Source of the DNA: a virus
Lineage: Duplodnaviria > Heunggongvirae > Uroviricota > Caudoviricetes
Virus record (IMG/VR): IMGVR_UViG_2541047891_000002
Direction: 5' to 3' (one strand)
DNA: 29,924 nucleotides
Below, piece after piece: positions 3,664-10,753 of the stretch. The position numbers and the translations under genes were made by a program. Positions within the stretch are counted from its first letter, which is position 1. Every line of letters begins with the position of its first letter. Below the pieces are notes generated by a model. It saw only the letters and a program-made list of their open reading frames with translations. It ran no database searches and had not been told where the DNA came from.

Positions 3664-3963
3664 ATGGTGGCTGACATGAAGTGTCATCGTAAACGCTGGT
3701 CACGCGAAGACCGGGAATTTATCGAAGCCAACGTCGGGAAAATGACCGTTGAAGAAATGGCGGAAAAACTGAAAGTCGCCACAACCGCCCTCCGGGCACA
3801 TGCCAGAAGGCACGGAATATCATTGTGTGTATACCGAATCAGTGAACACGACAAATATTTATGCCGTGAACTTTATAAAGAAGGGCTGGATATTCATGTC
3901 ATTGCCCGAAAGATGGAATTAAGCAATCGAGCTGTATCCAGCATTGTATACAGCGGATATTAA
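3664..3963 (+). CDS. Hypothetical early protein with possible helix-turn-helix segments (99 aa)
   Basis: ATG 3664 directly follows upstream stop (alternative ATG 3676); HTH-like stretches MTVEEMAEKLKVATTALRAHARRHGIS and LDIHVIARKMELSNRAVSSIVY. Confidence 0.5.
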   Translation: MVADMKCHRKRWSREDREFIEANVGKMTVEEMAEKLKVATTALRAHARRHGISLCVYRISEHDKYLCRELYKEGLDIHVIARKMELSNRAVSSIVYSGY

Positions 3964-3982
3964 TTAACAGGAGCTTTAATTT

Positions 3983-4507
3983 ATGGCTAAACCAGCAAAA
4001 CGCATCAAAAGTGCCGCAGCGGCTTATGTGCCACAAAACCGCGATGCGGTGATTACCGATATTAAACGCATCGGGGATTTACAGCGCGAAGCATCACGTC
4101 TGGAAACAGAAATGAATGATGCCATCGCGGAAATTACGGAGAAATTTGCGGCCCGGATTGCACCGCTTAAATCCGATATTGAAACCCTTTCAAAAGGCGT
4201 TCAGGGATGGTGTGAAGCGAACCGCGACGAACTGACGAACGGCGGCAAAGTGAAGACGGCGAATCTTGTCACCGGTGATGTATCGTGGCGGGTCCGTCCA
4301 CCATCAGTAAGCATTCGTGGTATGGATGCAGTGATGGAAACGCTGGAGCGTCTTGGCCTGCAACGCTTTATTCGTACGAAGCAGGAAATCAACAAAGAAG
4401 CAATTCTGAATGAACCAGGCGCAGTTGCCGGTGTTGCCGGAATTACGGTTAAGTCTGGAATTGAAGATTTTTCCATTATCCCGTTTGAACAGGAAGCCGG
4501 TATTTAA
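3983..4507 (+). CDS. gam: Gam, Ku-like DNA-end-binding host-nuclease inhibitor
   Basis: 174 aa; sequence MAKPAKRIKSAAAAYVPQNRDAVITDIKRIGDLQRE... matches recalled Mu Gam almost throughout. Confidence 0.9.
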   Translation: MAKPAKRIKSAAAAYVPQNRDAVITDIKRIGDLQREASRLETEMNDAIAEITEKFAARIAPLKSDIETLSKGVQGWCEANRDELTNGGKVKTANLVTGDVSWRVRPPSVSIRGMDAVMETLERLGLQRFIRTKQEINKEAILNEPGAVAGVAGITVKSGIEDFSIIPFEQEAGI

Positions 4508-4601
4508 TACCAGCATTAATATTTAATTAATTAACTTTCTTTCAATTATGGCGCGATGCGTCAGGGGATTGCTCGCGCCTGAATCTGAAATGGTGATATT
4601 T

Positions 4602-4856
4602 ATGACGAATCAGGAAATGAAAGAATGCATTGTCTCTTTATGTGCATGGCATAAAGCACGCGTGGAGGAATGTCGTTTTTTTATCGATAAAAAAGATGCG
4701 GATATTACCTTCGACAATGACGGTGAGAAATGCGTTATCCCTGCACATTCAAAGGAAGCAAACCTTCTGAGACTTGGGGCAAGGCTTGCCCTTTTCATAT
4801 TCGAAAAATTTCCTGTAACGCTGAATGTAAAGGATGACGAAGATGACGAGGAATAA
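4602..4856 (+). CDS. Hypothetical early protein with polyacidic C-terminal tail (KDDEDDEE)
   Basis: Track ORF 4548-4856; most plausible start ATG 4602 (MTNQEMKE...); alternative starts 4548 and 4590. Confidence 0.45.
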   Translation: MTNQEMKECIVSLCAWHKARVEECRFFIDKKDADITFDNDGEKCVIPAHSKEANLLRLGARLALFIFEKFPVTLNVKDDEDDEE

Positions 4857-5070
4857 GCAACAAGCACCGGAAATAACAGCGGAGGTGTTGATTAAAGACA
4901 GCGCCGAATGCCTAGCATCAGTACCTGCATTGATTCAACAGGCGAATGCAAAAAATCTCCGTCGTGCAGCTTCGTTTATTCGTGCAGGCATTGCCCGCCA
5001 GATGATGATTGCGCAGATGTGTATGCGCGAAGCACAGCGTCTGGAACATATGGAGGCAAATGGTGATTAA
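4834..5070 (+). CDS. Hypothetical early protein (78 aa)
   Basis: ORF overlapping the 3' end of the previous gene in early operon orientation. Confidence 0.4.
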   Translation: MTKMTRNKQQAPEITAEVLIKDSAECLASVPALIQQANAKNLRRAASFIRAGIARQMMIAQMCMREAQRLEHMEANGD

Positions 5071-5260
5071 GTCAATTGGCTTTGTCCTGCTGGTTAGCAC
5101 CTGCGGGAACGATGCCTGCGATGCCATACCCGTAACGGAAAGAATCTGGCCCACGGAGCAGATATGCAGGCAGGTGATGGAACACGTGCAAAAACGTTAT
5201 CCCAATGAGATTTTTTATTGCGAAGAGGTATTAAGAAATGAAAATACAGAGCATTACTGA
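5060..5260 (+). CDS. Small putative secreted or lipoprotein-like protein
   Basis: Track ORF 5009-5260; internal ATG 5060 preceded by GGAGG gives MVIKSIGFVLLVSTCGNDAC (signal-peptide-like with Cys after hydrophobic stretch); start uncertain. Confidence 0.35.
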   Translation: MVIKSIGFVLLVSTCGNDACDAIPVTERIWPTEQICRQVMEHVQKRYPNEIFYCEEVLRNENTEHY

Positions 5261-5549
5261 TGCTGACTTGATGGCTGCTACATTAATTTCCAGTGGCATA
5301 CCAGAACAAAAGGTGAATGATTTTCTGAATAATGTTGTGTATCAACGTTATGAGCAGGCCAGAGAAGATTTAATTTCAGAAAAGCGCGCGATAATCGCTG
5401 AATCCTTAAGTTATGCATGGATTATCGAAGAGTTGCGGGGAATCATTGCCGGTCAGGATAAACTGGCGGCAGTTGCCGCCCTTGATGTGCTACAACGGAT
5501 GAGTAAGGATTTATTCCATACCGAGTTTATTTTTAAAGAACTGGGCTAA
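5238..5549 (+). CDS. Hypothetical protein (103 aa), part of an AT-rich insertion
   Basis: ORF with protein-like composition in a region visibly lower in GC than flanks; converges on and overlaps the reverse-strand gene 5511-5915 by 39 bp. Confidence 0.5.
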   Translation: MKIQSITDADLMAATLISSGIPEQKVNDFLNNVVYQRYEQAREDLISEKRAIIAESLSYAWIIEELRGIIAGQDKLAAVAALDVLQRMSKDLFHTEFIFKELG

Positions 5550-5915
5550 TAAACTTTTGCTGATGTCTTTTACAACATCAAATGGGGCATCAGCAAACTC
5601 ATTTTTTATCCGTTCAAGGATGGGTTTCTTATGTAATGCGTTGGCAAAGTCGTGGCCTGTCTGGGTTAGTCTTATCGGTATTGCATTCCAGACAAATCCC
5701 TTAGTGGTTGGTATAAGCCCTATACATTTAGGAGATCCTGTTTCCAGATTTCTGTTACTGATAAGACCATTTTCTGTCAGCAACAATAAATGGAAAATTA
5801 GTTTCTGTTCATCATGTGATGTATTGATGCCAATATCACTAAGGGTGATAAAAGCATCATTTGAATCCAGAAAAACATCCAGAATCCGGGCCAGTTCATC
5901 ATAGTCAATTTTCAT
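5511..5915 (-). CDS. Hypothetical protein (134 aa) on the reverse strand inside the early region; function unknown
   Basis: Reverse-strand ORF with balanced, protein-like composition and AAGGAA 6 nt upstream of its ATG; the overlapping + strand ORF 5557-5904 is Ser-rich and low-complexity like an antisense shadow; start is 30 bp from and divergent to gemA start. Confidence 0.55.
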   Translation of the reverse strand: MKIDYDELARILDVFLDSNDAFITLSDIGINTSHDEQKLIFHLLLLTENGLISNRNLETGSPKCIGLIPTTKGFVWNAIPIRLTQTGHDFANALHKKPILERIKNEFADAPFDVVKDISKSLLAQFFKNKLGME

Positions 5916-5945
5916 ATCTCATTCCTTAATATGAGAGGTGATCAA

Positions 5946-6497
5946 ATGAGTCGCACATCACTGATTAAATTAATCCATGTAGCCCGTCGTAATCTACAAC
6001 TTGACGACGACACCTACCGTGCCTTTCTGATGCAGAACACGGGCAAAATTAGTTGCCGTGAGCTGACCGTCGCGCAACTGGAGCTGGTGCTCGATGCCAT
6101 GAAAGAACGCGGTTTTAAGAAGCAGAATAAACACCCACGCCGTCGCTTTAAGGGGCATGTCACGCCCCGCGAAAAGGTATTAAAAATCTGGCAGCAAATG
6201 GCAGAAGACGGTTTTATTGCCGATGGCAGTGATACAGCACTGGATAAATACGTCGAACGACTGACAGCCAGACGTAATGGCGGACAGGGTGTTTCCACGC
6301 TGGCGTGGTGTCACGGAGAATCGTTACAAATTGTGCTTGAAACCCTGAAACAGTGGCACATCCGCTGTATCCGTGAAGCCTTTTCCCGTTATGGACTCCC
6401 GTTGCCGGTCAGCCCGTCCGGGCGTGAACTGCGTGGCTATGATGCCATGACAGCAGCTTATGCCCGTGCAAGAAAAACACGGAGACTGGCACAATGA
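5946..6497 (+). CDS. gemA: GemA-like early protein
   Basis: Track ORF 5931-6497; start ATG 5946 with GAGGTG upstream; ~183 aa directly upstream of mor with ATGA overlap, as in Mu. Confidence 0.75.
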   Translation: MSRTSLIKLIHVARRNLQLDDDTYRAFLMQNTGKISCRELTVAQLELVLDAMKERGFKKQNKHPRRRFKGHVTPREKVLKIWQQMAEDGFIADGSDTALDKYVERLTARRNGGQGVSTLAWCHGESLQIVLETLKQWHIRCIREAFSRYGLPLPVSPSGRELRGYDAMTAAYARARKTRRLAQ

Positions 6498-6883
6498 CGC
6501 AGGATTTGTTTGGCGACTTTCAGGATGACAGTATCCTGGCTCATCTTGACAATGAATCCGGGGATACGTCACGATTTCCGGCACTGCTGGCGGAACTGAA
6601 CGATGTGCTGCGTCAGGAACTGTCCCGGCTGGGCGTTGAACCTGCGCACTCTCTGGAGATTGTTGTGGCTATCTGTAAACATCTTGGCGGTGGTCAGGTC
6701 TATATTCCTCGTGGGCAGGTGCTGGATTCACTGGTTCGGGATTTACGAATCTGGAATGATTTTAACGGGCGCAATGTTCACGAACTGGCAATTCGTTATG
6801 GTGTGACGTTTAACACTGTCTATAAAGCCATCCGACGAATGCGGCGTATAAAGTATCGTCAGTATCAACCCCCTCTGTTTTAA
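6494..6883 (+). CDS. mor: Mor, activator of the middle promoter
   Basis: 129 aa; C-terminal block YIPRGQVLDSLVRDLRIWNDFNGRNVHELAIRYGVTFNTVYKAIRRMRR matches recalled Mu Mor and is paralogous to C. Confidence 0.88.
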   Translation: MTQDLFGDFQDDSILAHLDNESGDTSRFPALLAELNDVLRQELSRLGVEPAHSLEIVVAICKHLGGGQVYIPRGQVLDSLVRDLRIWNDFNGRNVHELAIRYGVTFNTVYKAIRRMRRIKYRQYQPPLF

Positions 6884-6888
6884 ACAGT

Positions 6889-6913
6889 AAAGCCGGTTAA
6901 TCCGGCTTTTTTT
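6889..6913 (+). terminator. Rho-independent terminator ending the early transcript after mor
   Basis: Stem AGCCGG (6891-6896) / CCGGCT (6902-6907), 5-nt loop, then a run of 7 T; begins 6 bp after the mor stop. Confidence 0.75.
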
Positions 6914-6965
6914 ACGCCCTCAATATTCTGTTGTGACGATAAAACGTTCATTACAGGAGGGCAAC
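6914..6965 (+). promoter_or_regulatory. Candidate middle promoter region (Pm-equivalent, expected to be Mor-dependent)
   Basis: Position only: between the early terminator and the first middle-operon gene; contains TGACGATAAAAC; no element verified. Confidence 0.3.
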
Positions 6966-7526
6966 ATGCCTGAGTTTTCCCCTGCATTCCTTCATTCGCT
7001 GAATTTTGTTATACGGCCTGATGTTGAAGGTGGTTACGTTAATGATCCCACTGACCGTGGCGGCGAAACCAAATACGGCATTTCTGACCGTCGCGACGGC
7101 GTTATTGATGGCAAAACCGATGTTAACGGTGACGGGAAGCCTGATACCCGTATTAAAGATTTAACCCACGAGCAGGCGGCGCAAATCTACTGGCGTGATT
7201 ACTGGCTGGCGGCAAAGTGTAACGAATGGCCTGATGGTGTTTCCTTATTCGTCTTTGATGCTGCCGTTCAGCACGGTGTTAAACGCGCAATTCAAATCCT
7301 CCAGGCGGCAGCAGGTGTTGATGATGATGGCATCGTCGGCAAAAACACCCGCGCAGCCGTTCTGCGTGCCGACACTGACTGGCTGCTGTTGCAGTGTTTC
7401 CTGCGTCGTTCCCGCTATTACGCAGGGATTATCAAATCCAGTGCCTCGCAGGGGAAATATCTGAACGGCTGGTTTAACCGCCTGGATCTGCTCGCCAGCG
7501 TCTGCCGGGAGGTTCTGCATGGGTAA
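6966..7526 (+). CDS. GH108-family muramidase with C-terminal peptidoglycan-binding domain
   Basis: Track ORF 6933-7526; start ATG 6966 with AGGAGG 5 nt upstream; N-terminal EGGYVNDPTDRGGETKYGI motif typical of glycoside hydrolase family 108; C-terminal DGIVGKNTRAAV resembles PG_binding_3. Confidence 0.75.
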   Translation: MPEFSPAFLHSLNFVIRPDVEGGYVNDPTDRGGETKYGISDRRDGVIDGKTDVNGDGKPDTRIKDLTHEQAAQIYWRDYWLAAKCNEWPDGVSLFVFDAAVQHGVKRAIQILQAAAGVDDDGIVGKNTRAAVLRADTDWLLLQCFLRRSRYYAGIIKSSASQGKYLNGWFNRLDLLASVCREVLHG

Positions 7527-7737: not shown

Positions 7738-8110
7738 GCGTTTCTGTTATTTGTTACCAAATTGTCTGCCGGTCATGTTGCTGGCGCTGATTCTGATTAT
7801 CAGCGTGTTTTATGGTTTGCGGGCGGTGCTGTTCTGGAATGCTGCCGTTTTCAGTGTGGCGCTGTGCTTTACCGGCACTATTTTTGATGATCTGTCCCGG
7901 ACAGGAAAAATCCGACGTTATGCTTCTATTAATGCCATTGATTTTCTTGGTGGCCTCGTCGGGTTAAGTCTTTCGGCTATTGCAACCGGGCTTTTAGAAG
8001 AAGTGCATCAGTTCACGATTTATGCTTTATCTGGCTTCTGTAGCATATGGTTTTGCTTTCGCCTCCATATCTGTCTGCGACGTTCAGTACCGTCTGGCGC
8101 GGAGGCATGA
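7730..8110 (+). CDS. Multi-pass membrane protein (126 aa), holin-like candidate
   Basis: At least three hydrophobic helices (VMLLALILIISVFYGL, AAVFSVALCFTGTIF, FLGGLVGLSLSAIATGLL); start overlaps previous stop. Confidence 0.5.
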   Translation: MFKRFCYLLPNCLPVMLLALILIISVFYGLRAVLFWNAAVFSVALCFTGTIFDDLSRTGKIRRYASINAIDFLGGLVGLSLSAIATGLLEEVHQFTIYALSGFCSIWFCFRLHICLRRSVPSGAEA

Positions 8111-8232
8111 TGTACAGAAGATTCAGTAATGAATGTTCCGGCATGGCTACGTTGCTGATGGTGATGAAGGGTATCACAGTTATTGCACTGCTTGCCGTAG
8201 TCACGGGGATCTGTCTGTTAGTTTTTCGCTGA
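8107..8232 (+). CDS. Small single-pass membrane protein (~41 aa)
   Basis: Track ORF 8047-8232; ATG 8107/8110 next to GGAGG; one hydrophobic helix ITVIALLAVVTGICLLVF. Confidence 0.35.
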   Translation: MMYRRFSNECSGMATLLMVMKGITVIALLAVVTGICLLVFR

Positions 8233-8755: not shown

Positions 8756-9184
8756 ATGAACGATTTTAAAAAACGTCTCCCCCGCATCATCAGAACACTT
8801 GCCATCGTGGTACTGGCGGCATGTGGTGGCTGGCAGTTGTCCGGCGATGGTGATTCATCGCTGGTTTCTGTTCAGTACCTTCCATACACAGACCAGCACG
8901 GCGAACTGACAGTTTGCCTTAACCATCACGGTCCTGATATTCAGCAACGCCCTTACAGCTATGGTGAATGCATCATGCTGTTGAAAGCAGATTTGAAGCC
9001 TGTTTATGACACGTTAAATACCCATCTGAACAGGCCACTGACAGAGGAACAAAAAAATGCACTGGCGGTGTTTATGTTCAGCGCCGGTTCTGGTGCTGTG
9101 CCCGCTCCCCGTAATAATCAGCTGCTGAATGATGATGTGTTACCGGTGCCGGGATTAATGCCGGGTATGTCGTCAGGGCTGTAA
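8756..9184 (+). CDS. lys: Lysozyme-fold endolysin homologue with SAR-type N-terminus, possibly degenerate
   Basis: 142 aa; N-terminus MNDFKKRLPRIIRTLAIVVLAACGGWQL (two Lys then a weakly hydrophobic Gly/Ala-rich segment); core YLPYTDQHGELTVCLNHHG aligns to the Y.PY.D.....T.C.GH block of SAR lysozymes; see findings for missing Glu. Confidence 0.7.
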   Translation: MNDFKKRLPRIIRTLAIVVLAACGGWQLSGDGDSSLVSVQYLPYTDQHGELTVCLNHHGPDIQQRPYSYGECIMLLKADLKPVYDTLNTHLNRPLTEEQKNALAVFMFSAGSGAVPAPRNNQLLNDDVLPVPGLMPGMSSGL

Positions 9185-10383: not shown

Positions 10384-10578
10384 ATGGCTGTTGAAACCAA
10401 AGAAAAAACGTCTGCGGAAATTGCCCTGAAACTCAAACCCATCGTCGAAGCGGCGCTGGCTGAGGAGGGCAATATTCATATCGTCACAAAAGCCGAATCA
10501 CTGTATCTGTTAATGCAGATTGTGGTTGGCCCGCGTATCGCGGGCCAGATCATCAGAGAGTCACAAATTAATCAGTAA
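10384..10578 (+). CDS. Hypothetical small protein (65 aa)
   Basis: ATG 10384 preceded by AGGAG (10371-10375) at 8-nt spacing; lies inside track ORF 10162-10578, whose upstream part overlaps the D-like gene. Confidence 0.4.
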   Translation: MAVETKEKTSAEIALKLKPIVEAALAEEGNIHIVTKAESLYLLMQIVVGPRIAGQIIRESQINQ

Positions 10579-10753
10579 TCATTGCCTCCAACAACTGATA
10601 AATATGTTTTAACAACTCCCGTTCTGACTTCACATTTTGATCAGAACCGGCAAGACACGCTGGCTGTTTATTCGTATTCATGCCAGCGATAACAAAGTCA
10701 CTTGCTATTTTTGCAATCTCAATTTTTTGGTCAATGGTCAGCTTTTCTTTCAT
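10568..10753 (-). CDS. Hypothetical small protein (61 aa) on the reverse strand between D and E
   Basis: Reverse-strand ORF with AAGAGG upstream of its ATG and a TATAAAT-like element ~35 nt upstream; AT-rich against GC-rich flanks; 3' end overlaps 10384-10578 by 11 bp. Confidence 0.4.
   Translation of the reverse strand: MKEKLTIDQKIEIAKIASDFVIAGMNTNKQPACLAGSDQNVKSERELLKHIYQLLEAMITD

Follow-up and report, generated by a model that had tools for sequence, protein, structure and literature searches.

Why would a Mu-like prophage carry, within an early operon that is otherwise read in one direction, a small AT-rich gene pointing the opposite way, and what has the forward gene that runs into it from upstream to do with it? 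The locus that raises this question lies in a 29,924-nt stretch of DNA from a tailed virus (Caudoviricetes; IMG/VR record IMGVR_UViG_2541047891_000002), the whole of which is called the window here. We refer to the plus-strand open reading frame (ORF) at 5238-5549 as gene A and to the minus-strand ORF at 5511-5915 as gene B; both names are separate from those of the transposase A and B genes of the same prophage. A preliminary description, made from the sequence alone, had interpreted the two ORFs as a foreign cassette that might serve superinfection exclusion, a toxin-antitoxin (TA) system or anti-defense. Our comparisons support the conclusion that genes A and B form one exchangeable, AT-rich unit that moves horizontally between phages.

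Genes A and B are exchanged and inserted as a pair

The window is a Mu-like prophage that is nearly identical, outside 5200-5915, to a prophage of Escherichia coli SE11. Nucleotide identity between the two reached 98-100% at 3900-5200 and again at 5900-6950 and was 50-80% across 5200-5900, and the block of allelic replacement consists of exactly genes A and B. At the protein level, the two alleles share 50% identity for gene A and 62% for gene B. Pairwise identities of the two proteins were correlated (r=0.73, 66 non-independent pairs). The idea of a mobile cassette is thus borne out by the replacement of both genes as a block between near-identical prophages and by their joint insertion at other sites.

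Searches with hidden Markov models identified the unit of forward gene A and reverse gene B at three other kinds of site, with the genes either separated by 0-3 nt or overlapping by 15-39 nt. The pair occurs between gemA and mor (L119 and L124), in a lambdoid fragment with Arc and antirepressor genes (L145), and in the baseplate region of a myovirus family. There, the spike and W genes of the baseplate are immediate neighbors in 76 of 80 loci; the pair lies between them, as an insertion of about 820 bp, in three loci that belong to two diverged lineages, and one locus has gene A alone, the gene B ORF having been cleanly deleted with its upstream spacer kept. The baseplate-site pairs do not overlap, leaving a gap of 0-3 nt. 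At every site where both genes are present, gene A is oriented with the lytic operon and gene B against it. The lambdoid copy, deposited as a 4,452-bp "plasmid" (NZ_CP148432.1), carries antirepressor, YlcI/YnfO, Arc, a frameshifted gene B and gene A, and looks like a circularized fragment of the antirepressor region of a lambdoid prophage rather than a true plasmid.

The two genes are lost unequally. Among 45 IMG/VR loci with a gemA at least 81% identical to that of the window, which were not dereplicated, 11 carried both genes, 16 carried gene A only, 18 carried neither and none carried gene B only. Mu itself has neither gene, so the preliminary description's counter-scenario, in which both ORFs belong to the conserved backbone of Mu and most of its relatives, was not observed. 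At least three independent losses of gene B left gene A in place, namely in the SfMu type, which retains a remnant of the gene B 3' end, in the L062 type and in L148; the Mu-like phages of Yersinia, like SfMu, have gene A without gene B. The A-only forms derive from A+B forms by loss of gene B, because the tail of gene A in these relatives still carries the antisense remnant of the gene B 3' end.

An earlier reading of our own had taken gene A for a mere backbone gene and gene B for a single-gene moron, because gene A was found without gene B, gene B was found alone elsewhere and no partner recurred. It was dropped as the leading view after the block replacement relative to SE11, the pairs at other sites, the baseplate insertions and the census had been seen.

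Organization of the convergent pair

Genes A and B are both real genes. Their coordinates and strands, the convergent overlap of 39 bp, the ribosome-binding site (RBS) of gene B, AAGGAA, and the 30-bp gap to gemA were all as first described (Table 1). The start of gene A overlaps the preceding small ORF, which chains its translation to the early operon, and its last ~12 codons are antisense to the 3' end of gene B; the overlap is exactly conserved in E. coli, Salmonella and Edwardsiella alleles. Within the divergent spacer, the RBS of gene B (complement of 5922-5927) stands 6 nt before its ATG (complement of 5913-5915), and that of gemA is GAGAGG at 5933-5938. Independent gene callers reproduced the same layout in 8 other E. 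coli or metagenome loci, and 308 indexed blocks of public assemblies contain the exact 103-aa gene A protein, in this layout every time.

The segment was also correctly described as poorer in GC than its flanks: its GC fraction is 0.392 (0.370 for gene B and 0.410 for gene A), compared with 0.524 for the whole window. Only 0.17% of 405-nt segments along the 29.9 kb are as low in GC as gene B, and no 678-nt segment other than the pair itself is as low as the pair, making it the lowest-GC stretch of the window. As had been stated, the remaining early genes lie on the plus strand, which holds for every credible gene of the early region other than gene B. Identity to sequenced Mu-like phages resumes exactly at the start of gemA.

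Table 1. Positions of the convergent pair and of neighboring features in the window
Feature	Position	Strand	Remarks
Block of allelic replacement relative to the SE11 prophage	5200-5915		Exactly genes A and B
Gene A	5238-5549	+	103 aa; PHROG 1988; co-directional with the early operon
Gene B	5511-5915	-	134 aa; predicted winged helix; PHROG 585; GC 37%
Tail-to-tail overlap of genes A and B	5511-5549	both	39 bp
Divergent spacer between gene B and gemA	5916-5945		30 bp; holds the RBS of both genes
GC-rich hairpin GGCGGCAACTGCCGCC	5465-5480	-	31 nt past the gene B stop, inside gene A (AAVAAL motif)
Small early ORF	5063-5260	+	65 aa; PHROG 16556; directly upstream of gene A
Transposase A (partial) and B genes		+	
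gam	3983-4507	+	
gemA	5946-6497	+	Conserved right-hand anchor of the variable slot; 5946 is the start used by gene callers
mor	6494-6883	+	
GH108 lysin, C, terminase, head and tail genes		+	

Two features of the surrounding prophage may be recorded here. The protein of the small ORF upstream of gene A begins with MVIKSIGFVLLVSTCGNDAC, a hydrophobic N terminus followed by a cysteine, and may be a small exported protein or lipoprotein of the early region. The prophage also has two lysozyme-type genes, a GH108 plus PG_binding_3 gene directly after mor (6933-7526) and a Phage_lysozyme-family gene after C (8756-9184), together with the Mor/C paralogue pair; Mu, by contrast, has a single lys gene, located after C.

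Protein families of genes A and B

The gene A protein is acidic (isoelectric point [pI], 4.8) and predicted to be all-helical. Its AlphaFold2 model is poor, with a predicted local distance difference test (pLDDT) score of 66 that falls below 50 in the tail (residues 93-103). It matches PHROG 1988, a family of unknown function, over residues 1-101 (E=1.6e-40) and is under purifying selection, with a ratio of nonsynonymous to synonymous polymorphism (pN/pS) of 0.19-0.24.

Gene B is under strong purifying selection: its pN/pS is about 0.1 in comparisons of alleles that are saturated at synonymous sites. Its AlphaFold model (pLDDT, 92.9) comprises an N-terminal winged helix followed by three C-terminal helices, and 376 clusters at 50% identity, made up of stand-alone relatives of 130-145 aa, match its profile. 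The protein matches PHROG 585, also of unknown function, over residues 1-133 (E=1.2e-26), and Pfam DUF2513 (PF10711), a family with no known function, at 21.1 bits (E=4.1e-4), below the gathering cutoff of 29.6 bits. The DUF2513 profile matched 15 of 19 relatives at an E value of 0.01 or less (best, 1.7e-5), again always below that cutoff. Because the scores stay below it, profile comparison places gene B in a peripheral sister group of DUF2513 and not among the core members; the homologues in SE11 and on plasmids are named "DUF2513 domain-containing protein" by NCBI. In the searchable literature, DUF2513 was mentioned only once and in passing. The lack of a recognizable promoter might make gene B look like an unexpressed, chance open frame, a reading that is effectively refuted by the low pN/pS at saturated synonymous divergence, the confident model, the 376 clusters and the Pfam and PHROG matches.

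A fold search with the gene B model returned MarR, PadR, HxlR, TubR and viral F93 winged-helix DNA binders as the best matches, with weak scores that indicate a generic winged helix only. Like the PadR, MarR and HxlR regulators, gene B has its winged helix at the N terminus and further helices at the C terminus, and the H3-wing motif is similar, H3 ending in the PadR-like motif LLxENGLI. Unlike them, gene B is an acidic protein (family median pI, 5.4) with a hydrophobic "recognition" helix (net charge of H3, -1) and no sequence-profile membership, neither gene B nor its relatives giving a MarR or PadR match in Pfam. Variation within the protein is greatest in the wing (residues 52-81). Sequence searches found no relative in the PDB for gene B alone or for the profiles of genes A and B. 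NCBIfam gave only matches far below the cutoff, Rfam gave nothing relevant, and the PADLOC profiles did not match gene A, gene B or their neighbors; the sole PADLOC hits were helix-turn-helix (HTH) ones (RmrA and capH), to an HTH+S24 repressor beside the gene B homologue in L109.

Gene B on the lysogeny side of other loci

Outside close Mu-like phages, gene B occurs alone in a lambda-like tail island of Yersinia, a P2-like prophage, an integron cassette and phage-plasmids, being reverse-oriented in the first three, and no recurrent partner was found for it there. Of 31 full-length IMG/VR loci, at least 26 have it opposed to both neighbors, and in every context its GC content is 6-13 points below that of its flanks. 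Gene B is present or absent between collinear relatives and deviates in base composition, as a moron does.

In two loci (L108 and L109), the gene B homologue directly follows, in the same orientation, a repressor gene of the Arc-like or HTH+S24 type, which itself faces antirepressor genes of the Bro-N, ORF6N, P22_AR_N or ANT type in an immI-like module. The lambdoid fragment L145 repeats the arrangement of Arc and gene B. The position of gene B on the lysogeny-expressed side of the L108 and L109 modules makes its expression from the prophage plausible on grounds of context. A lysogeny-side or exclusion role for gene B is thus plausible from these repressor-adjacent loci, and the pair is a plausible exclusion-type module, as first envisaged; the supposed alien nature of a reverse gene in the early operon does not stand, the slot being a native one for reverse genes.

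In L021 (4322-5510; also L022 and L023), a gene B homologue with 45% identity lies in an integron-like array with an IntI-type integrase and 77-nt attC-like repeats containing an internal palindrome. There it shares a two-gene cassette with a 187-aa ORF, which lies upstream and matches neither Pfam nor PADLOC.

Expression signals

The 30-bp spacer is too short for a promoter, and any promoter of gene B must therefore lie in the 5' end of gemA, the gene within which the preliminary description had placed it. A sigma-70 consensus promoter was not found on the minus strand of 5916-6500, so that the proposed promoter is not visible by consensus. Baseplate-site copies share a conserved TGnTATTTT about 45 nt upstream of gene B, which was seen upstream of gene B in those copies only.

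Downstream of gene B, the codons for the conserved AAVAAL motif of gene A make up a perfect 6-bp GC hairpin, a weak terminator candidate that scored z=-0.98 against shuffles. Its variants in relatives comprised one compensatory type (the SfMu type; synonymous, GCAGC...GCTGC) against four mismatch types that break the same pair. We do not claim this hairpin as a terminator or as a selected structure, since it does no better than shuffled sequences and its covariation is mixed.

Some Salmonella Mu-like prophages (L006:4931-5000; also L101 and L113) contain a different GC-rich hairpin, GGCGGTG...CACCGCC, between the gene B start and the gemA RBS. It precedes CTCTTTTTTT on the early strand, giving a terminator-like element just before gemA, and the -10-like hexamer TATTAT on the gene B strand. 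An element of this type is absent from the window with its short spacer.

The slot upstream of gemA in Mu and its relatives

A reverse gene at this position is not alien to the Mu early operon, contrary to the first impression. Mu gp15 (88 aa, complement 7896-8162 of Mu) occupies exactly the same slot, overlapping gp14 by 62 bp and lying 70 bp from gemA; SfMu gp16 is the same gene in the same slot; and D108 has there a 119-aa reverse ORF, missing from its RefSeq annotation, that overlaps gp14 by 53 bp. These convergent pairs (Mu gp14/gp15, L019:2156-2663; D108 gp14/119-aa ORF, L016:2334-2931) resemble genes A and B in lying between gp13-type genes and gemA and in combining a forward gene of about 100 aa with a reverse gene that overlaps its 3' end; they differ in the length of the overlap (53-62 bp compared with 39 bp) and in the distance from gemA (69-70 bp compared with 30 bp). 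The proteins are unrelated by our searches: BLASTP gave no alignment of gene B with Mu gp15 at E≤100, no homology was detectable between gene B and the D108 ORF, and hhalign gave a probability of 0.25% for gene A and the Mu gp14 family. A literature search on Mu gp15 returned nothing.

In the 45-locus survey, the slot held gene B in 11 loci, gp15-like genes in 14 and D108-like ORFs in 5, the rest having a small reverse ORF or none. A gemA scan of genome contigs yielded 9 loci only. In one Salmonella Mu-like prophage (L009:3765-4386), a reverse 134-aa gene and a forward 67-aa gene are inserted between gemA and mor; this reverse gene is unrelated to gene B (hhalign probability, 0.2%).

Comparison with prophage systems that carry their own antidote

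The closest parallel in organization is the tab/anti-tab pair of the Mu-like Pseudomonas aeruginosa phage JBD26. There, tab is a small minus-strand gene with its own promoter inside the plus-strand lytic operon, and anti-tab is a plus-strand gene of the late operon, immediately upstream of and convergent with tab (PMC10884400). Anti-Tab binds Tab, and anti-tab could not be deleted unless tab was deleted too; the authors note that such a defense is not maintainable without its counter-defense (PMC10884400). Our pair shares with it the Mu-like phage background, the reverse gene against the lytic operon and the convergent operon-strand partner immediately upstream. In both cases the module is dispensable, being present or absent among relatives, and the reverse gene, a defense gene in the case of tab, is not found without its partner in a sensitive backbone. 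The absence of B-only loci, with gene A kept after losses of gene B, is what one would expect if retaining a defense requires its antidote, as stated for Tab and Anti-Tab (PMC10884400). The proteins themselves differ: Tab has 83 aa and no known domain, and gene B encodes a 134-aa predicted winged helix. A tblastn search of genes A and B against 50,697 phage records matched no Pseudomonas phage. Given this result and its place before gemA, the pair may act in the manner of Tab/Anti-Tab without belonging to that system.

Other prophages follow a similar logic with different components. P22 combines exclusion by SieB with a built-in escape for the resident phage, Esc, which is an in-frame internal product. 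In BstA/aba, a prophage defense with self-immunity, aba is a DNA element (PMC8585504). The logic would be the same for genes A and B, where the putative antidote is a separate convergent protein gene, and there is no homology to either system.

The window has a second convergent pair of the same design at 10384-10753. A 64-aa plus-strand ORF (10384-10578) begins 14 nt after a Mu gp27-like gene and shares 11 bp with a 61-aa minus-strand ORF (10568-10753; GC, 0.371; PHROG 25148), which stops 54 nt short of the large terminase gene. This pair stands at the exact tab/anti-tab position of JBD26, between the genes for the small and the large terminase, and is both conserved in E. coli SE11 and annotated there. 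The 61-aa ORF had no tblastn match in the 50,697 phage records and is therefore not a Tab homologue.

Weighing the explanations

We tentatively propose, at somewhat less than even likelihood, that genes A and B constitute a mobile module under opposed regulation, in which gene B would be a factor expressed in the lysogen and gene A its lytic-cycle antagonist, in analogy to Tab and Anti-Tab. Gene B would be independently transcribed and made while the Mu early promoter is repressed; after induction, convergent early transcription would run over gene B, and gene A, made only when the surrounding lytic operon fires, would antagonize it, probably by direct binding. The resident phage would thereby be spared harm from its own gene B during lytic growth. 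Gene B would most likely act against superinfecting phages or otherwise block phage development, with its fast-evolving wing serving to recognize a protein or nucleic acid of phage origin. Such a mechanism would explain why the orientation is fixed, why the two genes are transferred together and replaced together as alleles, and how the single genes are distributed, a pattern in which gene A alone is allowed and gene B alone is not seen in self-related backbones and is present in unrelated phages.

Several observations weigh against this proposal, among them the missing consensus promoter, the weakness of the terminator candidate and the lack of dereplication in the census. The correlation of gene A and gene B identities is also expected from linkage alone. 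Gene A is intact in many phages that have no gene B and may therefore have a B-independent role. One Mu-like locus (L110) is possibly B-only, its contig ending 314 nt after gene B, and the B-only loci include a P2-like myovirus. No sequence similarity was found between genes A and B and Tab/Anti-Tab or any PADLOC defense model. The timing would, moreover, not be uniform, as the positions of the pair suggest early expression of gene A in Mu-like phages and late expression at the baseplate site.

Gene B might instead be a stand-alone moron of the lysogeny side and gene A an ordinary early accessory gene of unrelated function, the two traveling together only through their overlapping 3' ends, which would make recombination tend to carry both. 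We regard this as unlikely but worth serious consideration: gene A lacks gene B in 16 of 45 close relatives, gene B lacks gene A in at least 8 other contexts without a recurring partner, and gene A lacks its C-terminal tail in the non-overlapping versions, so that the overlap is secondary. However, at the baseplate site full-length gene A, under purifying selection (pN/pS, 0.24), arrived with gene B in two lineages, the relatives of which lack both genes, and the genes do not overlap there, so that physical overlap cannot explain the co-transfer; the pair has also moved to the gemA-mor site. The structural matches to MarR, PadR, HxlR, TubR and F93 DNA binders, the LLxENGLI motif and the adjacency to Arc-like or LexA-like repressors in antirepressor modules would suit a PadR/MarR-like regulator acting on genes of the prophage or the host, such as an additional immunity or antirepressor-control factor, with gene A, if linked, as an anti-repressor. 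This function appears distinctly unlikely to us, given the acidic protein with its hydrophobic helix and the lack of a MarR or PadR profile match.

The recurrence of unrelated reverse genes (Mu gp15, the D108 ORF and gene B) in one slot and orientation, each sharing 39-62 bp with the 3' end of the gene upstream, could mean that the antisense transcription unit itself is conserved, a leftward transcript before gemA-mor gating early read-through and timing the early-to-middle switch, with coding content secondary. We consider this very improbable, since about one-third of close relatives have no reverse ORF in the slot, gene B is under strong purifying selection as a protein and it is also reversed in unrelated operons, so that the orientation is a property of the gene rather than of the slot. 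The TA function or anti-defense role in lytic infection raised in the preliminary description is hardly more probable. Both genes are small, paired and AT-rich in a region known for host-interaction functions, and integron cassettes, one of which contains a gene B homologue with a 187-aa ORF, often carry TA or defense genes. Nevertheless, no match to a TA, PADLOC or Pfam toxin or antitoxin profile was obtained, the genes are convergent rather than co-operonic, each is stably kept alone, and an anti-defense gene needed at infection would be expected to read in the direction of the early operon.

Implications for prophage biology

If gene B were only a regulator or a neutral moron, the locus would be a case of ordinary phage mosaicism. 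The opposed-regulation proposal can be extended into a broader scenario, which we think rather unlikely in its full scope: genes A and B would represent a widespread new family of prophage defense and counter-defense, following the Tab/Anti-Tab logic and hopping between operons; the slot between gp13 and gemA in enterobacterial Mu-like phages, including Mu gp14/gp15 and the D108 pair, would be a hotspot of interchangeable convergent defense-antidote pairs; and A-only phages such as SfMu would carry gene A against lysogens that express gene B. If this is true, a function would be provided for two uncharacterized families, the DUF2513-like group with its 376 clusters and PHROG 1988, and prophage defense with a linked self-antidote would reach from Pseudomonas to the enterobacterial Mu-like phages, with a different protein fold. 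Mu gp14 and gp15, unexplained since the Mu genome was sequenced, would gain a testable role. Finally, a forward gene of a lytic operon convergent with an AT-rich reverse gene, with A-only variants and no B-only ones, would provide a genomic signature by which more such systems could be found.
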